Assembly (NCBI GenBank): GCA_964587725.1
Contig: CAZPLO010000003.1
Span: forward strand, 21,660-85,659
Direction: 5' to 3'
Origin: an uncultured archaeon
GTDB lineage: Archaea; Altiarchaeota; Altiarchaeia; IMC4; SCGC-AAA252-I15
Length of the DNA: 64,000 nucleotides
Part shown: positions 1-57,293 of the stretch, piece by piece
Position numbering within the stretch: position 1 is the stretch's first letter
Layout: every line of letters starts with the position of its first letter
Notes under the pieces: model-generated
What the model was told of the DNA's origin: nothing
The model's input: only the letters and a program-made list of their open reading frames with translations
Database searches by the model: none
Position numbers and translations under genes: made by a program

Positions 1-167
1 ACAAAGGCAACGTGATGGTGAAGTCCCGGGAGTCCCAGGAGAGCCTCTACGACCACGACGTCGCCAGCATGGACGTCCACGGAGGATACGACCAGAAAGA
101 CGCGAAAGGCTTCATAAAACTGAATGCGCTGCGGCTCCGCACGTGGGCGACCAAACACGGTAGATAG
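1..167 (+). CDS. argG: argininosuccinate synthase, C-terminal part (5' truncated by window)
   Basis: Own translation from position 3: [46 protein letters not shown]..., the typical ArgG C-terminus; TAG at 165-167. Confidence 0.85.
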
Positions 168-168
168 T

Positions 169-1239
169 TCAGTTCCCCAGTTCGTGGCGGAGCGGCTTGG
201 ATATCCTGTCATCCAACCCCAGCAGGAAACGCTCCACCCTCTCCGACTTCGTCATCCGCTCGAAGTGTTTCTCCTCAGGTTCAACATCCACGCCGGACCT
301 TATGAGTTCCGCAGCCTTCACCCCTGCAGGGGTCATGGTCTTCACAGTGTCGCTGCTGGAGGCGGCATCGGCGAGCGGCTGCAGGAGATGGTAGTGGCGG
401 AGGTCTCCTATGAATTCAACGGCGTTGGGGATCCAAACAGCCAGTTCCGTGAGAAGCCTGAACTCTTTGTCGCCACACCAAAAATGTGGCCGGTGGTTCG
501 CCAGCTCTGCTTCCGTAGCGTCGTCGAACCTGTGTCCCCACTTGTACTTGGGGAATAATCCCCGAACGGTAGTCTCATAGGTGAGGGTGTGAGACTTGGA
601 TGTGGAGACCCTGTGGGGGTTGTCTCTCATGTAAAGGTCGTTGGTATAGTCTAACCTAATCCTGTCGTCCAGCATGTCCCTGACGCCGTCGTAGGGGTCC
701 ACCATTTCCCCCGTATTCAGCATTCCCACGTAGTCGAACGTATACTGTGCCGCCATGATGTGTTTCCTGAACGCCCACCTGCCGTCGTCCGTCTTGGAGA
801 GGAAGTGGGGGGAGCTAAGGTGCATCCTGTCCGCCAGCGGCTGGCCTCTGTAGTCTCCCTCAAAAACGCTCCTGTTGTTGACTATTATGTCCATGAAGAC
901 GTCTTCGTGCATCCCCAGCTGCCTGGCCCCGTTTGGCCTGCCCACGGCAACGTCTATGTCTCCTAACTGGCTCTCAAAACCCATTATGAGGTTGCGTATG
1001 CTGCTGCCGGCTATCCCGAACATCCAACCCTCCACCGTCCTTGAACGCAGGAGGAATTCTCTGACCGCGCAGTCCGGAAGGTCCCCCTCCACGTCGACTT
1101 TAACGTCCCTGGCGGCTCTGCCTTCCCCGAAGGCCTTACGGAGCATGTCGCCGAACGGGTTTCTCTCAAACTCTCGGACGGTAAGTCCATCCTTCAGAAA
1201 ACTCAGTTGCCTATGGTTTGGCTCCCGCTCTACAGGCAT
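169..1239 (-). CDS. class II nucleotidyltransferase-like protein (CCA-adding/poly(A) polymerase head domain), divergent
   Basis: IAGSSIRNLIMG...GDIDVAV resembles VGGxVRD...DxD; MVDPYDGVRDMLDDRIR resembles iiDPfgGxxDLxxrxiR; the RRD motif is not conserved. Confidence 0.55.
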   Translation of the reverse strand: MPVEREPNHRQLSFLKDGLTVREFERNPFGDMLRKAFGEGRAARDVKVDVEGDLPDCAVREFLLRSRTVEGWMFGIAGSSIRNLIMGFESQLGDIDVAVGRPNGARQLGMHEDVFMDIIVNNRSVFEGDYRGQPLADRMHLSSPHFLSKTDDGRWAFRKHIMAAQYTFDYVGMLNTGEMVDPYDGVRDMLDDRIRLDYTNDLYMRDNPHRVSTSKSHTLTYETTVRGLFPKYKWGHRFDDATEAELANHRPHFWCGDKEFRLLTELAVWIPNAVEFIGDLRHYHLLQPLADAASSSDTVKTMTPAGVKAAELIRSGVDVEPEEKHFERMTKSERVERFLLGLDDRISKPLRHELGN

Positions 1240-1268
1240 AGGATACTATGCGAAGGATAAAGTATTAA

Positions 1269-1853
1269 CTACTCTTCGTCGTCTGTTTCCTCGTACATGA
1301 CGCAGCCTTCGTCTGAGATGCAGCGTTCGTCGTCTGTGCAGGAGCGTATCACGTTCTGGGTCTGGGTGACCTTGCAGCAGCCGTCATCGCAGAACGGCTG
1401 GATGTAGTTGCGGTACATCTTCTCGGTGCCCTGGATGCTCCGGCACCGGGTGACGTTCTCATAGTGTGCCGCGCCGCAGTCTTCGTCTGACGTGCAGGCT
1501 TCGCAGGTCGGCACATACAGTGTGGTGGTGGTCACGTTCGCGCCGCCGAACCCGCAGGATGCGAGGCACTGGACGCAGTCACATCTCCTGTATGGGTTGA
1601 CTGTCACGTCGTCGCATTCGCAGGGCGGGCACACCACACGCGTGCTCCCGTTACCGCCCTCTATGACCGGGCACTCGGAAAGCCTGTCCTTGACTGTTCC
1701 GTCCGCGCAGACGTATTTCTGAACCACCTTGTCCACCACCATGGTGTCGCCGCCGGGCTTAAGAAACCATATGGTGCCTCCGCCGAATATGATACCCAAG
1801 AGTATGCCTATGGCAATCAGCACCGCAACCAGCATAATCTCCACGCGGGTCAT
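1269..1853 (-). CDS. membrane-anchored Cys-rich hypothetical protein
   Basis: N-terminal hydrophobic helix, many Cys, short Thr tract. Confidence 0.65.
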   Translation of the reverse strand: MTRVEIMLVAVLIAIGILLGIIFGGGTIWFLKPGGDTMVVDKVVQKYVCADGTVKDRLSECPVIEGGNGSTRVVCPPCECDDVTVNPYRRCDCVQCLASCGFGGANVTTTTLYVPTCEACTSDEDCGAAHYENVTRCRSIQGTEKMYRNYIQPFCDDGCCKVTQTQNVIRSCTDDERCISDEGCVMYEETDDEE

Positions 1854-1906
1854 ACTTCATAGATATAAGCCTCAACCCTTAAAAACGTTGGATACAGTAT
1901 GGTAAT

Positions 1907-2611
1907 GTGGACCAAAGACTCATAGCGGCGGCGGGCGTTTTAACGGTTTTGGCCGCGCTTTTATTGGCGTCCACACACAATCCTACTGGAGGTGGCAGAG
2001 TGGCTGAGACACCGGAAACCGATGTGGTGGAATTGTCGGAGCCCTCCACGGGGGGCATTTCCGTCGAGGCTGCGCTGGCGGAAAGGAGGTCTAGAAGAGA
2101 GTATAAGGATCAGCCGCTGACGCTGGAGCAGCTGTCGCAGCTATTGTGGGCCGCGCAGGGGGAGACCAGTCAGTGGGGCGGCCGCACCGCCCCGTCCGCG
2201 GGCGCAACCTACCCGCTGGAACTCTACGCGGTCGTCGGCGACGTGGAAGGACTTCAGCCGGGGGTGTACCGTCACATCCCGTCGGAACACCGGATGGTGA
2301 AGACCGTGGACGGCGACGTCCGTGAAGACCTGGCTGCGGCGGCGCTGGGGCAGGAGTTTGTGGCCGAAGCCCCGGTCGTGTTCGTCATCGCGGCGGTGTA
2401 TGAACGCACAACGCAGCGTTACGGAGACCGCGGCATAATGTACGTGCACATGGAGGCCGGCCACGCAGGCCAAAACATATACCTGCAGGCGGAGTCGCTG
2501 GGCCTCGGCACCGTGGCGGTGGGCGCATTCAACCTGGAACAGGTGAGTGGGCTGCTTCAGCTGCCCGACGGCCAGGAGCCCGTGTATTTATTCCCCGCCG
2601 GCGTAGTGTAA
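1907..2611 (+). CDS. SagB/ThcOx-family nitroreductase
   Basis: RRSRREY, LSQLLWAAQG, RTAPSAGATYPLE, EAGHAGQNIYLQA motifs; N-terminal signal/TM. Confidence 0.9.
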   Translation: MDQRLIAAAGVLTVLAALLLASTHNPTGGGRVAETPETDVVELSEPSTGGISVEAALAERRSRREYKDQPLTLEQLSQLLWAAQGETSQWGGRTAPSAGATYPLELYAVVGDVEGLQPGVYRHIPSEHRMVKTVDGDVREDLAAAALGQEFVAEAPVVFVIAAVYERTTQRYGDRGIMYVHMEAGHAGQNIYLQAESLGLGTVAVGAFNLEQVSGLLQLPDGQEPVYLFPAGVV

Positions 2612-2614
2612 GGG

Positions 2615-2944
2615 ATGCGTATCTGGGATTTGCCTCCGGAACGGCTGTGCAGGAGCCACCTGCTGGGCGAACACCGTGAACTCCATGCACTCTGGACGAT
2701 ACTAACAGAGGACAAAAAGGGTTACCGTTGTCACCCGGAGACCAGGCGGTGGGTGGGGAAGCTGAAGGCGCTGCACAACCGCCACCGCCTGTTAGCCGAG
2801 GAGATGATGTTACGGGGGTACCGGCACAAAAGCCCATTGGATGAGTCGCTCGCTGCGGGAGAACCGGTTCAGACGGAGTACGTGGACACCGTGGAGGAGC
2901 AGGTGAAGAAACTCCGCATGAAAGGCTGCGGCTGCAGGGTCTGA
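2615..2944 (+). CDS. pyrimidine dimer DNA glycosylase/endonuclease V-like protein
   Basis: MRIWDLPPERLCRSHLLGEHRELH start; HPETRRW; EMxxRGYxH. Confidence 0.75.
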   Translation: MRIWDLPPERLCRSHLLGEHRELHALWTILTEDKKGYRCHPETRRWVGKLKALHNRHRLLAEEMMLRGYRHKSPLDESLAAGEPVQTEYVDTVEEQVKKLRMKGCGCRV

Positions 2945-2969
2945 TTATTTATTGTCTCCATCGTAATCT

Positions 2970-4592
2970 GTGTCAATGCTTCAGGAGCTCGTGTTCGGGG
3001 TGTTCGGGGGATTGGGCCTGTTCATCTACGGCATCCACGCGATGAGCTCCGGCATGCAGAAGGTGGCGGGCGACCGCCTCCGCTCCATCATAGCGAAGTT
3101 CACCAGCAACCGTTTCATGGGCGTACTCGTCGGCGCCGGAACAACCTCTGTCATTCAGAGCAGCAGCATCACCACCGTCACCGTCGTAGGCTTCATAAAC
3201 GCGGGGCTGATGACGCTGACCCAGGGTATAGGCGTCATAATGGGCGCCAACATAGGAACCACCATCACCGCCCAGCTGATAGCATTCAGGCTCACCGACT
3301 ACGCCCTCCCAATAGTCGGATTGGGGAGCCTGCTGTTCGTTCTCGGCAGGAGCAAGAGGCAGAGGGACCTGGGGGAGGCGGTGTTCGGCTTCGGCATACT
3401 GTTCCTGGGGTTGAGCATCATGACCGGCGTCACCAAGCCCCTGGGGGGTACGCCGATGGTCCACACACTGTTCGCGTCGCTGCAGGGCAGCCCGCTGCTG
3501 GCGCTGCTCGCCGGCCTGCTGGTGACGATGATGGTTCAGAGCAGCAGCGTCACCGTCGGCCTAACCATAGCCCTGGCCGCGGCCGGCCTGCTGGATTTGA
3601 GGACGTCCATCTTCATAATATTCGGCGACAACATAGGAACCTGCATCACGGCGTTGATTGCGAGCGTTGGCACCAACCTGTCGGCGAAGAGGGCGGCGCT
3701 CGCCCACGTCATGTTCAACGTCCTGGGCGTCTGCATGGCCTTCATACTGCTGCCGGTCTACTACTCTGTGGTAACCTCCTTTTCCGGAGACATCGCCCGT
3801 CAGATAGCCAACACCCACACCCTGTTCAACGTCGTAAACACCATGATATTCCTGCCCTTCGTTCCCTTCTTCGCGGCCATGCTCAAGCGGGTTCTCCCCG
3901 GCGAGGACGTGGCGGACGTGATGAAGCCCAGGCACCTGGACCGGCACCTGCTGTCTACGCCCACGGTCGCAATCGAGGCGGCGAGGAAGGAGCTGGTGCA
4001 CATGACGTCGATGGTGCGCTCCATGTTCGACCAGACCATGGAGTCGTTTTTCGACGGCGGAGACTCCCTGATGAAGAAGGTGGTTAAGACGGAGGTGGGG
4101 GTGGACTCCCTCCAGGATGCCGTAACCCACTACCTGGTGGACTTGACCCAGGAGGAACTGTCTGTGCAGCAGTCTGAACGCATTCCCCGTCTACTGCACA
4201 GCGTCAACGACCTGGAGCGCATAGGAGACCACGCCGTGAATCTGATGGAGCTGGTGGAGGACAAGAACACCAGCAGGTGCGTGTTCTCCGACAAGGCCAG
4301 GGAGGAGCTGCGGAGACTGCAGACGGTGCTGTCGGAGATGTTCGACGACACCGTGTTGACTCTGGGGGAAGACGACATCCAGGCCGCCCGCCGCGTGCTG
4401 GTGAACGAGGAGGAAGTGAACGCACTCACTTTAAAGTTCAGGGACAACCACGTGAAACGCCTGGAGTGCAGGGAATGCAACATCAACGCCGGCGTAATCT
4501 ACACCGACATACTCATGAACCTGGAGAAAATCGGAGACCACCTGTCCAACATCGCCCAGGCCACCCTCGGGTCCCTGGGCATAAGAACCTAA
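2970..4592 (+). CDS. Na/Pi cotransporter family protein with PhoU domains
   Basis: Two QSSS motifs, GANIGTT and GDNIGT, C-terminal LERIGDH and LEKIGDH. Confidence 0.92.
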   Translation: MSMLQELVFGVFGGLGLFIYGIHAMSSGMQKVAGDRLRSIIAKFTSNRFMGVLVGAGTTSVIQSSSITTVTVVGFINAGLMTLTQGIGVIMGANIGTTITAQLIAFRLTDYALPIVGLGSLLFVLGRSKRQRDLGEAVFGFGILFLGLSIMTGVTKPLGGTPMVHTLFASLQGSPLLALLAGLLVTMMVQSSSVTVGLTIALAAAGLLDLRTSIFIIFGDNIGTCITALIASVGTNLSAKRAALAHVMFNVLGVCMAFILLPVYYSVVTSFSGDIARQIANTHTLFNVVNTMIFLPFVPFFAAMLKRVLPGEDVADVMKPRHLDRHLLSTPTVAIEAARKELVHMTSMVRSMFDQTMESFFDGGDSLMKKVVKTEVGVDSLQDAVTHYLVDLTQEELSVQQSERIPRLLHSVNDLERIGDHAVNLMELVEDKNTSRCVFSDKAREELRRLQTVLSEMFDDTVLTLGEDDIQAARRVLVNEEEVNALTLKFRDNHVKRLECRECNINAGVIYTDILMNLEKIGDHLSNIAQATLGSLGIRT

Positions 4593-31099: not shown

Positions 31100-31130
31100 T
31101 TTTTAACCGCTGAAGCGAATACTTTAACAG
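31099..31130 (+). promoter_or_regulatory. conserved upstream element of pilin gene 1 (also before genes 2-5)
   Basis: TTTTTTAAC-N-GAAG(C/T)GAATA...TAA pattern at about 31099, 31513, 31959, 32350 and 32853; contains a TATA-like TTTAA. Confidence 0.6.
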
Positions 31131-31152: not shown

Positions 31153-31494
31153 ATGTCCAACTGGAAGCTGCAGGTGCTGTTTTTGGCTCTGCTGGTGGTG
31201 TCGGATGCGGCAGCCGCCGCCACTGAGATGAAAGACATAGCCTGCAATGTCATCAAACCCATCTACGAAACCCTGAAGACCATCGCCCCCGCCCTGGTCC
31301 TGTTGATGTTCACCTACGGCGCCGTCAAGTACGCCCTCGCATCCGACGACCCCGGCGGCCGGAAGCAGGCTAAAAACATCATGATACACGCCATCATCGC
31401 AGGCCTCATCATCGGCATCATATTATGGTTGATGGATGATGTTCTAGGACTCCTTAGCCAAGACTTGAAGAACTGTCTAGGCATAACGGCTTGA
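31153..31494 (+). CDS. VirB2/TrbC-like pilin paralogue 1
   Basis: Signal peptide; TM-YGAVKYALASDDPGGRKQAKNIMIHAIIAG-TM. Confidence 0.7.
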   Translation: MSNWKLQVLFLALLVVSDAAAAATEMKDIACNVIKPIYETLKTIAPALVLLMFTYGAVKYALASDDPGGRKQAKNIMIHAIIAGLIIGIILWLMDDVLGLLSQDLKNCLGITA

Positions 31495-31508
31495 TGTTGA
31501 ATCTGTTT

Positions 31509-31613
31509 GTTGTTTTTTTAACCTGTGAAGTGAATACTGTAACGGAGGCGTTGTTGTTATGGTTAGGCGGTTGCTGGTTTTGCTGGCTGTTTTCACGCTG
31601 CTGGCTGTAGCAG
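31509..31613. repeat. 105-bp perfect direct repeat, copy 1 (upstream region plus signal peptide of pilin 2)
   Basis: Identical to 31955-32059; match extends about 16 nt further with 2 mismatches. Confidence 0.93.
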
Positions 31614-31939
31614 CGTTTCCCGCATCCGCGGCGACAAACAAGTTGAAGGAAAACTTCTGTGAGATAGTGGTGTTGCTGCATAAGGTCCTGACGTATGTTG
31701 GGCCCACGATAGTGCTGCTGATGTTCCTCTACGGCGGCATCAAATACGTTTATTCCGCCGAGGACCCCGGCGGCCGGAAGCAGGCTAAAAACATCATGAT
31801 ACACGCGCTCATAGCGGGCATACTGCTGGGGCTCGCTGTGGTCATCATCGAGTTCGTGATCCCCACCATAAAAAACGACATTGATGCCTGCTACAGGCTA
31901 GCTGGTGCGGGGGCCAGGGTCGACATTCAACCCACCTGA
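31559..31939 (+). CDS. VirB2/TrbC-like pilin paralogue 2
   Basis: ASA cleavage site; YGGIKYVYSAEDPGGRKQAK core. Confidence 0.7.
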   Translation: MVRRLLVLLAVFTLLAVAAFPASAATNKLKENFCEIVVLLHKVLTYVGPTIVLLMFLYGGIKYVYSAEDPGGRKQAKNIMIHALIAGILLGLAVVIIEFVIPTIKNDIDACYRLAGAGARVDIQPT

Positions 31940-31954
31940 TTAGACTCCTGGTTG

Positions 31955-32059
31955 GTTGTTTTTTTAACCTGTGAAGTGAATACTGTAACGGAGGCGTTGT
32001 TGTTATGGTTAGGCGGTTGCTGGTTTTGCTGGCTGTTTTCACGCTGCTGGCTGTAGCAG
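31955..32059. repeat. 105-bp perfect direct repeat, copy 2 (pilin 3)
   Basis: Identical to 31509-31613. Confidence 0.93.
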
Positions 32060-32337
32060 TGTTTCCAGCATCCGCTAATATGGAAAAGAGCCTTGACGAC
32101 ACGCTCTGCGACATCCTGAAGGCCATAGGGTATGCGTTGGGAACCGTCGGCCCCATGCTTGTCGCATTGATGTTCCTCTACGGCGGAGTCAAGTACGTTT
32201 CTTCCGCAGACGACCCCGGCGGTCGCAAGCAGGGCAAGACCATATGCATACATGCGGTGATAGGCGGCATAATCATAGCATTGGCTCACACGCTGGTGAC
32301 TATGGTGGTTAATGTTCCATGCGACTTCTACTCCTGA
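32005..32337 (+). CDS. VirB2/TrbC-like pilin paralogue 3
   Basis: YGGVKYVSSADDPGGRKQGK core. Confidence 0.7.
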   Translation: MVRRLLVLLAVFTLLAVAVFPASANMEKSLDDTLCDILKAIGYALGTVGPMLVALMFLYGGVKYVSSADDPGGRKQGKTICIHAVIGGIIIALAHTLVTMVVNVPCDFYS

Positions 32338-32393
32338 CCGCGCAAACGGTTTTTTAACGCATAAGCGGAATATATAACAGCGAGGGGCTTCAA

Positions 32394-32759
32394 ATGCGTA
32401 TCAGCGGTTTCAGGGTCTTCCAGCTAACAATAATCGCATTATACCTGCTGTCTTGTTTTTCAACGGCGGTTGACGAGTTCGCTTTAAGGGATTCCTTCTG
32501 TGGCGTAATCAACGAAATAGGCGACGTATTGGAGAAAGTCGCCCCGGTCCTGGTGCTGCTGATGTTCACCTACGGCGGCGTCAAATACGTGTTCTCCGCG
32601 GACGACCCCGGCGGCCGGAAGCAGGGGAAGATGATATGCATATACTCCATTATCGGCGGAATCCTGATAATCCTCACATGGGAGATGATAAAGCTAATAT
32701 TCGGTTCCCTACCCCAAAATTTCCGATGCCCTACAACACCTTGGATGTCGAACCTATAG
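32394..32759 (+). CDS. VirB2/TrbC-like pilin paralogue 4
   Basis: YGGVKYVFSADDPGGRKQGK core. Confidence 0.7.
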   Translation: MRISGFRVFQLTIIALYLLSCFSTAVDEFALRDSFCGVINEIGDVLEKVAPVLVLLMFTYGGVKYVFSADDPGGRKQGKMICIYSIIGGILIILTWEMIKLIFGSLPQNFRCPTTPWMSNL

Positions 32760-32761
32760 GA

Positions 32762-32821
32762 CTAATATTCTGTTCCATCCCATATGATCTCTGGTGCCCT
32801 AAGGGTTTTTACTGGCCATGA
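32762..32821 (+). pseudogene. orphan alternative C-terminal cassette of pilin 4
   Basis: Reads LIFCSIPYDLWCPKGFYWP* versus gene 4 LIFGSLPQNFRCPT; 29/39 nt identical without gaps to 32694-32732. Confidence 0.7.
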
Positions 32822-32900
32822 TTTCTAGGCAGCCCCAAAGTCCGTCAAAATCTTTTTTTAACCTGTGAAGCGAATATTTAATCACCTCAACGGTGAACCC

Positions 32901-33233
32901 ATGAACAGAGACAACCTACTCCATATTCTCATGCTGGTGGCGGTTCTCGCGGCATCCGTCGACGGAGCATCCGCTAACCTGCACTCCAAGGTCTGCCCTA
33001 TTCTGGAGGCGTTCATCGACGTGTTGGAGACCATAGCTCCGGCGTTGGTTCTGCTGGTGTTCACCTACGGCGGCGTCAAATACATTTCGTCGGCGGACGA
33101 CCCCGGCGGCCGGAAGCAGGGTAAATCCATACTGATACACGCCATAATCGGCGGCATAATAATAATTATAGCCCGGTTCGTCGTGGGGATTGTGTTCTCA
33201 GGATGGGGCGACCAATGCCCGGGGGTTCTCTAA
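32901..33233 (+). CDS. VirB2/TrbC-like pilin paralogue 5
   Basis: ATG at 32901 after GGTGA; YGGVKYISSADDPGGRKQGK core. Confidence 0.7.
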   Translation: MNRDNLLHILMLVAVLAASVDGASANLHSKVCPILEAFIDVLETIAPALVLLVFTYGGVKYISSADDPGGRKQGKSILIHAIIGGIIIIIARFVVGIVFSGWGDQCPGVL

Positions 33234-33235
33234 CC

Positions 33236-33610
33236 ATGCGGGGTTTATATTCAAACACCAGGGTGGGGTTGAAGGCGGCGGCGGCCGTCCTTCTTTTACA
33301 GTCGGTGTCAGCCACCACGGACATTGCCTTGGCTTTCAAGAATGCGCCGTGCATGATAATCGGCCAGGCATACGGTGTCGTCAACACGGTCGGCCCCGCC
33401 CTGATACTGGTCATGATGTTCTATGCGGTGGCAAAGTACGCGTACAGCGCGGACGACCCCGGCGGCCGGAAGCAGGCCAAAACCATATTCATCCACGCCA
33501 TCATCGCGGGTATGTTCTTCGCACTGGTGGCCATAGTCTTCAGGATACTGGAAACCAACATTAGCTGGCTGTTCAAGGCCGGGAATCTCTGCTCGGGGGT
33601 TACTCTATGA
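33236..33610 (+). CDS. VirB2/TrbC-like pilin paralogue 6
   Basis: YAVAKYAYSADDPGGRKQAK core; ATG 2 nt after the gene 5 stop. Confidence 0.7.
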   Translation: MRGLYSNTRVGLKAAAAVLLLQSVSATTDIALAFKNAPCMIIGQAYGVVNTVGPALILVMMFYAVAKYAYSADDPGGRKQAKTIFIHAIIAGMFFALVAIVFRILETNISWLFKAGNLCSGVTL

Positions 33611-33957
33611 GGACAAGAAACCTCATGCATGCTCTGACCCTGGTTTCACTGCTTACGTCCGGATCCAGTGTGTCGGGCGCATCGAACGCCATACACACGG
33701 TGCCGTGCAAACTATTGGGTGGCCTGTTCTCGGCGCTCACCACCATCGGCCCGTCCCTGGTGTTGTTGATGATGGTCTATGGAGCCGCCAAGTACGCGTT
33801 CAGCGCGGACGACCCCGGCGGCCGGAAGCAGGGGAAGACCATATTCATCCACGCAATCATCGGGGCCGTCATTATGGGGCTCATATACATAATAGTTAAG
33901 GCTGTATTGGGTGCCTCATACGGTGACTATTTATGTTCGGGGGTGAAGTTCACGTAA
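33607..33957 (+). CDS. VirB2/TrbC-like pilin paralogue 7
   Basis: YGAAKYAFSADDPGGRKQGK core; ATGA overlap with gene 6. Confidence 0.7.
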   Translation: MRTRNLMHALTLVSLLTSGSSVSGASNAIHTVPCKLLGGLFSALTTIGPSLVLLMMVYGAAKYAFSADDPGGRKQGKTIFIHAIIGAVIMGLIYIIVKAVLGASYGDYLCSGVKFT

Positions 33958-33958
33958 A

Positions 33959-34306
33959 ATGTCGCTCGCACACAAGATTAAGTGGGTGGCGCCAACCGTC
34001 CTAATGTTCCTGTTGGTGTTAAGCCTGTTGGCGCCCACGGTGTCTGCATCCTACCTGGGCCCAATAACAACATTCTTAAAATCTTTAATCAACTCTATTC
34101 GCATAATAGGGAACTCAATCGCAGTCGTAATGTTCATCTACGGGGCGGCCAGGTACGTCTACGCATCCGATGACCCCGGCGGCCGGAAGCAGGCCATAAG
34201 CATATGCATAGCCTCGGTTGTGGCGTTGATAATCATCTTTATAGCGGAGTCTGTTATCGGCGCTATCTGTGCGTCGATGGGGCCTGACTGTAATCCTGTT
34301 AGCTAA
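33959..34306 (+). CDS. VirB2/TrbC-like pilin paralogue 8
   Basis: YGAARYVYASDDPGGRKQAI core. Confidence 0.7.
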   Translation: MSLAHKIKWVAPTVLMFLLVLSLLAPTVSASYLGPITTFLKSLINSIRIIGNSIAVVMFIYGAARYVYASDDPGGRKQAISICIASVVALIIIFIAESVIGAICASMGPDCNPVS

Positions 34307-34307
34307 A

Positions 34308-34625
34308 ATGAGGTATAAAATAGCGTATGCGGCGGCTTTGCTGGCTTTAATCTCAGCCGGCGTTCAGGCCACAACCGTCGACGCAGCCGGCATAATAGCG
34401 AATGTCATATGCGACCTGGTGCCTGAGGTCATAAACCTGGCTTACGTTCTAGCGTTGCTGATGTTCATCTACGCGGGCGCCAAGTACGCGTTCAGCGCGG
34501 ACGACCCCGGCGGCCGGAAGAAGGCGAAGTCGATTGCGGTCCAGGCGATTGTGGGTTTCCTGATAGTCGGCGTGTCGAAGGCCCTGGTGGAGGCCATAGC
34601 CGGTGCAGGCAACGTCTGCCCCTAA
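34308..34625 (+). CDS. VirB2/TrbC-like pilin paralogue 9
   Basis: YAGAKYAFSADDPGGRKKAK core; ATG at 34308. Confidence 0.7.
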   Translation: MRYKIAYAAALLALISAGVQATTVDAAGIIANVICDLVPEVINLAYVLALLMFIYAGAKYAFSADDPGGRKKAKSIAVQAIVGFLIVGVSKALVEAIAGAGNVCP

Positions 34626-37495
34626 CCTGTTAAAATCGTCTCTGAAGCACTGGTGGTGGATGCGAAGCCGTCGTAGCTTATCTCATAGGACCTTACGAAC
34701 CCCCAGCTGAAGTCTCCGTCGGGGCTGCCGTCGCCGTCGTAGTCTGGAACCAGGCGGAAGTGCTCCAGCGGCTCGACCTCCCTGTTGTACAGCCCCAAGG
34801 CCCTGTACTCATCCAGGTACCTGCCGAGGTACAGGCGGGTAATCATGAAGTCGTTAAACTCTTGTGGAACGTAAACAAGGGTTCTGAACTGCGGCATCCT
34901 GCAGATGCTCCCCTCCGGCAGCTGCTTCCAGTTCAACGCGCAAGCCATTATACTGGGTATTCTCTGCTCGTCGTATCCCACCAAGGGGACTACGCCAAGG
35001 AGTGATGCGTCGTTGGCGTCCCTCCAACTGTTCCACGGTATCCTGTTCCCGTACGGGCCGATGACGGTTATGTCCGCTATGCTGTCCTCCACTATCTCGA
35101 ACACTACTCCCGCGATGTAGCCCTGGCACCCGAATACCACCTGTTTGACTCGCCTGAAGTTGCCTTCGTCGTCGACCACCAGCTGCTCCTCCACCTGGCT
35201 CTGGTCCGGGAGGAAACTGCACTGGACGTAGTTTTTGAAGGACCCTGGAGTTACGTTCTCTATGACGCCGGTGGCTATGAAGTGCAGTGCGCTGCCCTTC
35301 GGCACCATAGTCCAGTCTATGGTCACGTAGTTCAACCCCATCCCCCGTTTCTCGTAAACCTCGTTATACTCTTCAACTATCTTGAAAGCCTCTTCCTCGC
35401 TGGTCTTGTTGACGAAGAAGCGGGCGACGTCCTGTATCTCATAGTAGTCGGCCTGCAGGTTGTCTATGAGCACCGGCCGCTGGCTCACGCTGGTGAACCA
35501 GTGGCCGTAGTCCCACCACGTCAGTATCGCGTCCCCCGGGTCGGTGTTCTGCTCGTGCCATTGGAGTGCGGGCTCCCAGTAGTATCTGTCGCTGGTGGCG
35601 CCCATGTGCATGACCTGGTAGCCCACGAACTTGTTATACTGCGTAGCCCCAAGAAGGGGGACGTAGAACACGGGTATGAACAGCACCATGATGGCGCCCA
35701 CCACCCGCAGGCTCTCCAAATCCTCCCTTTTAACCACCGCGAACAATCCTATGGTGGCTCCCAATGCTGTCACGGCTGTGCTGGACGCGAAAATCCATGC
35801 GCTCTTATGGTATGCCCCCCACAGCATCGGCAGGCTCCACGTAAGCAGGAACAGCGCCCCCACGCTACCCTTCCTGTACACCAGGTACGCGAGCACCGGA
35901 ATCATCATCAGCCCGTACAGTAATGCTATGCCGTAGCGGTTGTAGCCCTGCGCCAGGAACTCCTGGAACGACCCGGCAAGCGGGTTCTGCTCCGAAACGG
36001 TCATGTGCACGACGCTCCTGGTTCTGGCGGACATCAACCCGTTGATGACGAAATCTATCATACTGGAGGGGGTGATGAAGAATGTGAACGCCACTGTCCC
36101 AGCCACCAAGGCGACCACACCCAAAACCATTATGTTCTTACCCATCAGGTTCACCGTCCTGCTCTCCACCGAATCCCCTGATACCGTGTCCTCCCCGTAC
36201 ATGCGCACCCTCAATAACTCCAGTACGATGGACGCGCCCACAGCCGCTATTATCGGGTATACGGCGTTGGGCGTCATGTCCGGGAGCGCCGGCAGCCCGC
36301 CCCTCTCATGGAGTATGAGGCCGCCGCCCAACTGCGCAATAAAAACGGGAATCAGTATGTACGGTAGCGCCTCCACGGCGTTGCGTTTGTGCAGGAAGTT
36401 GACGAACGCGTACGCGGTCCCGAAGGCGCCCAGGGTGAGGAACGCGTACTGGGCTCCCCCCCACGCCACATTGAGCATGAGGAACGCCACGCCCGAGTAG
36501 GCAGCGTATTTGAAGCTGCGGCGGTGGTATCCCGCGAAGAACAGGTAGAGGGTGCTGACGAGCAGGAACATTCCCAGGGCGTCGTCTTCGCTGTTCGTCG
36601 CCACAGCCTTCATCGCGAAGGCTGGGCTGAGTATCAGCATGAACGCGGCCATGAACGCCGCCACCTTGTTGTACGGCCGCATGTCCGTGAACATCTCCTT
36701 CACCAGCAGGTACATAATCACCACCGTGAACGCCGATATGGCGCCGGGCAGCAGCATCGCCACGTCGTGCAGGCTGATTCCGAACGGCTCCAGCGCCAGG
36801 GCCAGCGACGAGTAAAGGACGGGCGTCATCATCCTCGTCGACGACTGGTCTAAGCCGTACATGCCCGCACGCCCGCCCATTGCAGACGGGTCGTTGCTGT
36901 GGGCCAGCCCTCCTAGCAGGGGATAAACCAGCGGGTCGAATTCAGGCGGGTATCCGCCGTCGTATATGCCCCGCATCCACTTGTAATGCCAGTAGGGGTC
37001 GAGCGCGGCCAAATAATCTGTTTTCGCAGGCGCCATGTGGGTTATCATCCCCGACAGGAACAGCGCCGCCACGCCGGCCACCTCAGCCTTCACTACCCCA
37101 TGGTAGGAGAGCGAGTACCCTAAAGCGAACACCGCCGCCACCGCGCTGAAGTACGTGTAGTCCTCGTTCAACGGGAACCCTATGGTGTTGCTGTAGTGTG
37201 AAAACAGCGCCGTTAAAAAAAGCAGGACGGGTATGCCGATGCTCCAGTAGTCCTTCTTCAGCCTCTTGTCTCTCAGAATAGTGGCGGCGGTCCACAGGAA
37301 CAGCGCCGCCATCATCAATGGTGTGCTGTCTCGCAGGAACCCCCCACTCAACGGTTTAACGGACGCCAGAACCAGTGCGGCCAGCGGCGCAAGGAACAGG
37401 GGCCTGTCAAGGTGTTCGCCGACTTTCCCGAGGCCGTCGACGGGGAGGCTGACGGAAACCTCCTTCTTCTTTTTCCTCCTCTTAGAAGCCATCAC
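34622..37495 (-). CDS. aglB: oligosaccharyltransferase AglB (STT3)
   Basis: LDPYWH, EDD, TVSEQ, WWDYGHW, DN motifs; multi-TM N-terminal domain. Confidence 0.92.
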   Translation of the reverse strand: MMASKRRKKKKEVSVSLPVDGLGKVGEHLDRPLFLAPLAALVLASVKPLSGGFLRDSTPLMMAALFLWTAATILRDKRLKKDYWSIGIPVLLFLTALFSHYSNTIGFPLNEDYTYFSAVAAVFALGYSLSYHGVVKAEVAGVAALFLSGMITHMAPAKTDYLAALDPYWHYKWMRGIYDGGYPPEFDPLVYPLLGGLAHSNDPSAMGGRAGMYGLDQSSTRMMTPVLYSSLALALEPFGISLHDVAMLLPGAISAFTVVIMYLLVKEMFTDMRPYNKVAAFMAAFMLILSPAFAMKAVATNSEDDALGMFLLVSTLYLFFAGYHRRSFKYAAYSGVAFLMLNVAWGGAQYAFLTLGAFGTAYAFVNFLHKRNAVEALPYILIPVFIAQLGGGLILHERGGLPALPDMTPNAVYPIIAAVGASIVLELLRVRMYGEDTVSGDSVESRTVNLMGKNIMVLGVVALVAGTVAFTFFITPSSMIDFVINGLMSARTRSVVHMTVSEQNPLAGSFQEFLAQGYNRYGIALLYGLMMIPVLAYLVYRKGSVGALFLLTWSLPMLWGAYHKSAWIFASSTAVTALGATIGLFAVVKREDLESLRVVGAIMVLFIPVFYVPLLGATQYNKFVGYQVMHMGATSDRYYWEPALQWHEQNTDPGDAILTWWDYGHWFTSVSQRPVLIDNLQADYYEIQDVARFFVNKTSEEEAFKIVEEYNEVYEKRGMGLNYVTIDWTMVPKGSALHFIATGVIENVTPGSFKNYVQCSFLPDQSQVEEQLVVDDEGNFRRVKQVVFGCQGYIAGVVFEIVEDSIADITVIGPYGNRIPWNSWRDANDASLLGVVPLVGYDEQRIPSIMACALNWKQLPEGSICRMPQFRTLVYVPQEFNDFMITRLYLGRYLDEYRALGLYNREVEPLEHFRLVPDYDGDGSPDGDFSWGFVRSYEISYDGFASTTSASETILTG

Positions 37496-56754: not shown

Positions 56755-56892
56755 GTTTTGGCGGATGATATTCGGTATAGTGCAGTGGGGTCGCAGACGC
56801 CACACACAGCCGACGTTTCGTCGGGTGTGTGTTCGAGCTGCGTTCGGCCACATCCGCTGCGCACGTAAACCGGGCGCTGCAGTTTTGGCGGA
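56755..56892. repeat. 11-bp direct repeat GTTTTGGCGGA enclosing a structured 116-bp segment
   Basis: Copies at 56755-56765 and 56882-56892; the second overlaps the SRP RNA 3' end. Confidence 0.6.
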
Positions 56893-57157
56893 CGGCCGGG
56901 AGTGGAGTCCAGAACCCGCGTAGGGGTTGCTCCCACCCGGTTCTCGTCCCCGCGGCCTCACAAGCACCGTTGCACCAGAGTTATGGCTGCTCCCTTCCGG
57001 GCCTGACCAGGTTCCTGAGGTGAACGGTCCAGTGAGACGAGGACTCACGGTTCCGGGTCGGACCCCGACGCCGGCTCCGGACCCGCCTCCCGGCTTCAGC
57101 CCCCCCATAGACGATTGAGGGTTACAGGCTACGCCTAACAGCCCGGCCTAGTCCACC
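56887..57157 (-). ncRNA. ffs: archaeal signal recognition particle RNA (7S)
   Basis: Helix 8 GGTCAGGCCCGGAAGGGAGCAGCC; Alu-domain CTAGGCCGGG...CCTGTAACCC; 5' GGTGGAC pairs with 3' GTCCGCC. Confidence 0.92.
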
Positions 57158-57293
57158 ACTGAATTATGGGGGAGCCATAGTATATAAAACAGGGCGGTTG
57201 CCTGCGGGCTACCTGGGCGTTTAAATAGGCGTTTAAACAATACTTAAGTGAGGTTGGCTGCGGGTGTTGGCTGATTCTAGAAGTGGTGGGACA

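Follow-up and report, generated by a model that had tools for sequence, protein, structure and literature searches.

Directly behind the stop codon of a pilin gene, in a tandem array of such genes, lies what appears to be a second version of that gene's 3' end. Is it a spare part that the cell can use, or something left over? The question arises in a 64,000-nt stretch of DNA from an uncultured archaeon (hereafter, the window), in which array gene 4 is followed, two bases past its TAG, by 19 codons and a TGA (32762..32821, plus strand). We refer to this segment, the 'cassette', as copy B; it translates to LIFCSIPYDLWCPKGFYWP*. A preliminary description had called it a silent alternative C-terminal cassette and a spare or displaced tip. 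We find its factual statements correct. In our reading, copy B is probably what remains of a gene-4-like pilin copy, a 3' end that was stranded and is today part of the gene 4 3' UTR.

The ORFs of the window define nine head-to-tail pilin genes of 110–135 codons each, all on the plus strand between 31153 and 34625. In a Pfam profile search, all five of the array ORFs submitted passed the cut-off for PF18895 (T4SS_pilin), and three of those five also matched PF04956 (TrbC/VirB2) with E below 1e-5. The array is a tandem set of PF18895 VirB2/TrbC-like pilin genes, with gene 4 among its nine members. Gene 1 (31153..31494) is an ORF that contains the conserved core of repeat families D1/D2 and has a PF18895 match at the corresponding place in the genome. 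The putative promoter and signal-peptide part of the gene 2 ORF (31559..31939) is nearly identical to that of gene 3 (32005..32337; PF18895, 6.2e-13; PF04956, 5.7e-07). Gene 4 (32394-32759) is an intact, expressed-looking ORF of 121 aa that matches PF18895 with 42.6 bits and an E-value of 6.4e-11 against a cut-off of 26.6. We set the start of gene 5 (32901..33233; PF18895, 3.4e-10) at the ATG at 32901 because the GTG at 32865 falls within a conserved intergenic element. Genes 6–9 (33203-33610, 33607-33957, 33959-34306 and 34269-34625; ORFs with approximate starts) abut or overlap one another over 33203..34625 and have no such element; the ORFs at 33607-33957 and 34269-34625 matched PF18895.

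Abutting the array is an AglB/STT3 gene, identified with Pfam (34622-37495, minus strand), and a full-length archaeal SRP RNA lies at 56886-57158 on the minus strand (158.6 bits). The host is an archaeon because both of these are present. Other neighbors also belong to glycosylation or surface chemistry: two epimerase/dehydratases, a GT2 enzyme, two cis-prenyltransferases and an LPG-synthase-like protein. The genome is a 1.56-Mb metagenome assembly of 48 contigs that is 92% complete, with 15 PF18895 matches genome-wide and, by profile search for a VirB4-type ATPase, no match to PF03135. Two of the PF18895 matches lie inside open frames of 1063 and 1449 aa (C28:10275-10448, minus strand, and C7:3668-3817, plus strand), which are possibly fusions of pilin domains to large surface proteins. 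On another contig, C41, a 756-aa ATPase (P-loop_TraG, 7.7e-24 / AAA_10 / DUF87 (HerA)) precedes two further PF18895 pilin genes. The group occupies 2-3117 on the minus strand, is not beside the nine-gene array, and may form a compact Ced/Ted- or T4SS-like module away from it.

As read from the translations, an array pilin consists of a signal peptide, a Cys, a hydrophobic helix, a loop of the form YGGVKY-x-SADDPGGRKQGK, another helix, and a tail that is short and variable and holds a Cys, often with a Pro directly after it. The gene 4 translation reads as a signal peptide and two hydrophobic helices with a short basic ADDPGGRKQGK loop, and its protein ends in ...KLIFGSLPQNFRCPTTPWMSNL*, with TAG as the stop codon. 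Across the family, the tails are the most variable part of the pilins. A Cys shortly past the signal peptide is combined with a Cys in the last 25 residues in 49 of 53 distinct pilins. The other four lack the N-terminal Cys; two of them have two tail Cys, one has none, and the last has a single Cys that we judged to be in the second helix. This co-variation suggests an N-to-C disulfide that would tie together both exposed ends of the pilin and that could, in these proteins, replace head-to-tail cyclisation. Such cyclisation is known for some bacterial TrbC/VirB2 pilins. The preliminary description is correct that copy B keeps the terminal Cys-Pro of gene 4, but because a tail Cys paired with an N-terminal one is family-wide (49/53), its retention is not distinctive and provides no evidence of function.

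A tree of 33 pilins, from which gene 6 was left out by the motif filter, gave no resolution for genes 1–5, and 13 of its 30 inner branches were open. For genes 8 and 9, five or six relatives supply orthologues that group with them in supported clades (93/91 and 100/98). The array therefore seems to have one conserved end (33947-34625, genes 8 and 9) and one that turns over quickly. A genome of the same genus (G001) has a shorter array, and its tails differ.

The two versions of the gene 4 tail were compared by repeat search. Copy A (32694..32733, plus strand; LIFGSLPQNFRCP), which lies within gene 4 and is the reference copy of repeat family D7, aligns with 32762-32801 at a spacing of 68 nt, gap-free and with 30 of 40 nt identical (75%). 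This is the same match that had been described earlier as 29/39. Both copies open with CTAATATTC. The match is the best gap-free 40-nt match at any offset of 20–150 nt in the 3.6-kb array, and its 30/40 identities exceed those found in all 60 mononucleotide shuffles of the array (range 22–26). At the edges of the match, identity is exact over 9 nt on the 5' side and over 7 nt (TGCCCTA) on the 3' side, with no similarity outside the 40 nt. In the 28 nt that complete each 68-nt unit, only 6 of 28 positions are identical, and a local alignment of these ends with gaps scores 4 versus a shuffle mean of 5.3, with 98% of 2000 shuffles doing as well. A genome search for the origin of the non-homologous 28-nt end of either tail returned just chance matches of 11–16 nt. 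A homologous part of just 40 nt with unrelated ends fits two separately evolved tails better than it fits a simple 68-nt duplication.

Another source of such a repeat would be replication slippage, in which about 68 nt across the end of gene 4 were duplicated in tandem and the untranslated second copy then decayed neutrally into an inert relic. Slippage would explain why copy B begins 2 nt past the stop, at the very point at which unit A finishes, and why it starts with the same 9 nt; the perfect head-to-tail period of 68 nt and the fact that both units finish near TAGG are likewise as expected. Uniform decay, however, would not yield 30 of 40 identities followed by 6 of 28 with no significant gapped alignment. 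The stops, too, differ in both kind and position, with TAG at offset 63 in unit A and TGA at offset 57 in unit B. Finally, the distribution of differences among codon positions is not one to be expected if copy B had decayed neutrally. The ten differences between copies A and B fall on first, second and third codon positions in a 6/0/4 pattern. The chance of seeing no second-position change is 0.0084, by a test that is post hoc and rests on these 10 differences; in paralogue cores, 7–16 of 48–61 differences are second-position changes. Since the differences shun second positions, most of the divergence between A and B would date from a time when that frame was translated in both, and copy B would have been stranded recently in comparison. 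Taking both sides together, we regard a slippage duplication as unlikely.

Copy B has no start, promoter or partner gene that belongs to it. The sole ATG of its frame, at 32636, lies within gene 4, and the promoter-like conserved element sits after copy B, not before it. With partial homology to a functional gene and no start or promoter, copy B is a gene remnant (a partial pseudogene).

What follows copy B points to where it came from. A 29-nt conserved element occurs upstream of genes 1–5 only and consists of a T-run, then AACCTGTGAAG, then an A/T-rich box. Its five copies (family D4, 69–100%) are at 31100-31128, 31515-31543, 31961-31989, 32350-32378 and 32855-32883, with an ATG ∼16–25 nt past each. 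The element appears to unite a terminator with an archaeal promoter that would give near-leaderless mRNAs. Between genes 4 and 5, a T7 run (32853-32859) and the element with its A/T-rich, TATA-like box together occupy 32853..32883 on the plus strand, and we infer from these motifs that they serve as gene 4 terminator and gene 5 promoter. Copy B ends with its TGA; a T-rich stretch comes next, then the T7 run, 31 nt from the stop, and then the element TTTTTAACCTGTGAAG...AATA. For genes 1–3, the distances from the TGA to the T-run are 18, 19 and 12 nt, versus 93 nt from the TAG of gene 4. The spacing between successive elements is correspondingly longest across gene 4 to gene 5, at 505 nt versus 389–446 nt elsewhere. 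Thus it is copy B, directly upstream of the T-run, that has the native 3' context of pilin genes 1–3. A T5 run at 32806-32810 also lies inside copy B (codons GGT TTT TAC). Oligo-T stretches act as archaeal terminators, and if they do so here, transcription of gene 4 may stop before the end of the relic is reached.

The array also carries signs of exchange at the other ends of its genes. Genes 2 and 3 have in common a segment with the promoter-like element and the signal peptide (family D3; 31505-31629 versus 31951-32075, 98% over 125 nt). In their alignment, 99 of the first 100 columns are identical, and beyond these only 18–40 of every 50 are (36–80%). The segment has the sequence features of a recent gene-conversion or duplication tract. 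The near-identical 5' parts, joined to divergent remainders, indicate that the array does recombine.

These observations lead us to favor the following scenario for the stranding of copy B. The source copy would have been a neighboring paralogue that no longer exists, or an allele that had its tail displaced. Through a non-homologous rearrangement in the array, a different tail with its own stop (32694-32759) would have come to stand directly before the old tail, either by deletion of the remainder of the neighboring paralogue or by illegitimate joining of a foreign or paralogous tail. The old tail would then lie untranslated in the gene 4 3' UTR, before the T-run at which transcription would end and before the gene 5 promoter, and could be used again solely through a rare and irreversible 68-nt deletion between the 9-nt repeats. 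As there is no outgroup for gene 4, the order of these events is one that we infer. The earlier suggestion of a spare or displaced tip thus holds for displacement, which the native 3' context and the 6/0/4 pattern both support, and not for a spare in use.

The arrangement might also have been created by the assembler, as the preliminary description had allowed, by joining two strain alleles in tandem. The genome is indeed a metagenome assembly in 48 contigs, and the two tails do look like alleles. We compared the site with four public runs (X1–X4) from one microbial-mat study that hold this stretch, three of which are possible sources of the assembly; run X4 is not flagged as one. Each run yielded a single contig of 873–878 nt over 32602 (32597 in X4)-33400 with 0 differences and 0 gaps. 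These contigs were built separately for each run at depths of 5.7–79 and are unbranched across the site, and a 9-nt repeat is far below assembler word sizes. Because the contigs of all four runs, X4 included, carry the arrangement unchanged, it is not an assembly artefact, and we give that reading almost no weight. The repeat is a stable feature of the four samples. Two contig joints were listed, neither of them at the repeat. One, in X1–X3, runs from 32075 to 32553 with 82 letters between. We tried it as a deletion allele and rejected it, since it corresponds to the paralogue gene 2, whose signal peptide equals that of gene 3 and whose core resembles that of gene 4. The other, on a 222-nt contig from X4, leads from 33142 back to 31900 with 93 letters between, and was taken for another paralogue joining two conserved parts.

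Could copy B nevertheless serve as a usable tip? Position 32694 is a codon start, 300 nt past the ATG, and removal of 68 nt therefore fuses copy B to gene 4 in frame, as the preliminary description had calculated. A deletion between the CTAATATTC repeats, or gene conversion, could in this way give some members of the population a pilin with the other exposed C-terminal tip. The swap would occur in the most variable part of these pilins and would retain the tail member of the Cys pair seen in the family, and copy B has an intact frame with a stop and a native terminator context. Several results argue against such use. Copy B is single, neither tail being found elsewhere in the 1.56-Mb genome, and the exact repeat is just 9 nt. 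Because 9 nt is too short for homologous exchange of the RecA/RadA type, only a one-way slippage deletion is left, with no return. The contigs of the four runs, which can miss rare variants, contain no 68-nt skip or deletion.

Searches for the cassette in other organisms gave the same picture. Gene 4 had no close orthologue among 5.8 billion proteins, with a best non-self hit of 58% identity over 55% of the query, and its protein cluster has one member. A protein search found no protein of 50–160 aa that has three 5-residue words in common with the copy B peptide. Back-translated YDLWCPKGFYWP (the last 12 residues) and WCPKGFYWP (the last 9) gave 0 matches in the metagenome and genome contig collections. 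DNA matches were obtained in 6 of 40 relatives and covered the conserved core alone (query 191–333 of 561), never the tail. The suggested places to look for the cassette, namely a deletion allele, orthologues that end in the cassette tail, and the peptide in other proteins, have therefore come up empty: within the reach of these data, fusion of the cassette to a pilin is seen in neither a relative nor a read. This is the outcome that the preliminary description had named as refuting its cassette. We also looked for downstream tail copies behind 32 pilin genes, comprising eight of the window's nine and 24 in six relatives. Gene 4 alone has a clear one, with 22 of 30 identities versus a shuffle maximum of 18; two others were one above their own shuffle maximum (19 versus 18), which is at chance level, so that none of the other 31 genes has a clear relic behind it. 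A spare tip in use by part of the population is, on this evidence, quite improbable.

Two other routes from gene 4 into copy B were considered and rejected. Read-through of the TAG would meet an in-frame TAA at the next codon but one. Excision of the 68 nt from the RNA in the manner of a BHB intron is at odds with the predicted fold of 32670-32800, which spans both repeats, leaves them unpaired and is no more stable than shuffled sequence (z +0.09). The AATATT within both repeats is self-complementary.

A further route is programmed −1 ribosomal frameshifting, which would yield a longer pilin isoform that ends in the copy B tail. The frame of copy B is the −1 frame of gene 4, and an A_AAT_TTC heptamer at 32717..32723 (plus strand) fits X_XXY_YYZ in the gene 4 frame. 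As the preliminary description had pointed out, it leads into the cassette frame, the −1 frame being open from at least 32546 to the TGA at 32819-32821. A programmed −1 site consists of an X_XXY_YYZ heptamer and a downstream stem-loop or pseudoknot. The gene 4 site resembles such sites in its in-frame heptamer and open −1 frame, but differs from them in that no downstream structure is present: over 32710-32870, past the heptamer, folding gives z +1.80, and 199 of 200 shuffled versions reach the same stability or a better one; the fold across both repeats is likewise unremarkable. Genome-wide, 1511 such heptamers occur in 363,880 codons of long ORFs (0.0042 per codon). Across tail A (22 codons), 0.09 heptamers are thus expected, and 0.03 if the A/T type alone is counted, and in these long ORFs the −1 frame is open for at least 33 codons at 45% of positions. 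The −1 relation itself follows simply from 68 mod 3 = 2. The heptamer is within reach of chance and probably due to it, as the preliminary description had itself allowed, and we consider a programmed frameshift at this site most improbable.

Some features nonetheless sit uneasily with an inert relic. If nothing here had a function, it would be an unlikely coincidence that a 19-codon frame is intact and has Cys-Pro, that an exact repeat of 9 nt allows a swap in frame, and that an in-frame slippery heptamer leads into the same frame. The corresponding idea is that copy B is a live spare part, such that a 68-nt deletion in a few cells, or a −1 slip at A_AAT_TTC, swaps a disulfide-anchored pilin tip; we judge this very unlikely. 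If it were true, the locus would give a T4SS-type pilus a minimal means of replacing its tip in one direction, comparable to displaced CdiA/Rhs tips. We found no sign that copy B is used, and judging from its sequence it looks like an ordinary remnant in a recombining tandem array.

Comparison with known systems places the stranded tail more precisely. The preliminary description had likened it to the silent pilS cassettes of Neisseria and to orphan CdiA or Rhs tips. Like pilS, copy B is a promoterless partial copy of a pilin 3' end near an expressed pilin gene. The pilin families, however, are unrelated (type IV pili versus VirB2/TrbC here). pilS systems have many silent copies with long conserved blocks on both sides of the variable part, and recombinant variants have been observed. 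Here, in contrast, there is one copy with 9 nt of exact identity, there are no conserved flanking blocks for gene conversion so that an irreversible deletion alone is possible, and no variants appear in the contigs of the four runs, which drop rare ones. With the copy B peptide absent from the proteins and contig collections searched, the pilS comparison is not supported.

The likeness to orphan CdiA-CT/Rhs-CT tips extends to the layout alone. In both cases, a 3' fragment lies directly past a full gene and opens with homology to the region before the tip; a plausible origin is that it stayed in place as a new tip came in or as a neighbor was truncated. Orphan CdiA/Rhs tips have a toxin domain and their own immunity gene; copy B has 19 codons and no toxin domain, and with just 31 nt from its stop to the T-run there is no immunity gene. 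Its exact identity to the gene before it is 9 nt rather than a long conserved pre-tip region, and it belongs to a T4SS pilin family.

Tandem arrays of divergent VirB2-like pilins are, according to the part of the published account at hand, already known from Patescibacteria, in which 441 arrays of 2–11 genes with a mean identity of 25% occur in 383 assemblies (PMC12102498). The same part of the account describes amplification of VirB2 paralogues in Bartonella and Anaplasma (PMC12102498). The Patescibacteria arrays resemble the present one in consisting of divergent tandem pilins that match the same Pfam models (PF18895/PF04956) and in varying through whole paralogues; the sections at hand contain no mention of partial tail relics (PMC12102498). 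The present array differs in its archaeal host and in its location among glycosylation genes, apart from the VirB4/HerA-like ATPase on C41. In archaea, as far as the available part of the source goes, VirB2-like pilins with a VirB4/HerA-like ATPase form the Ced/Ted DNA-import pili (CedA1, TedC), and that part holds no relevant passage on paralogue or tandem arrays or on disulfides (PMC9905601). The possible likeness to Ced/Ted pili lies in VirB2-like pilins in an archaeon plus a VirB4/HerA-like ATPase.

As it stands, the stranded tail is a footprint of turnover in a tandem pilin array and a case of ordinary genome evolution, in which tails are exchanged or stranded by illegitimate joins beside gene conversion of the 5' parts, as in genes 2 and 3. 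Only proof of its re-use would lend it wider importance, as the first indication that VirB2-type pilins switch tips, and this in an archaeon. A more useful lead may be the array as a whole, with nine VirB2-like pilins that have a co-varying pair of N- and C-terminal cysteines and are encoded among glycosylation genes.
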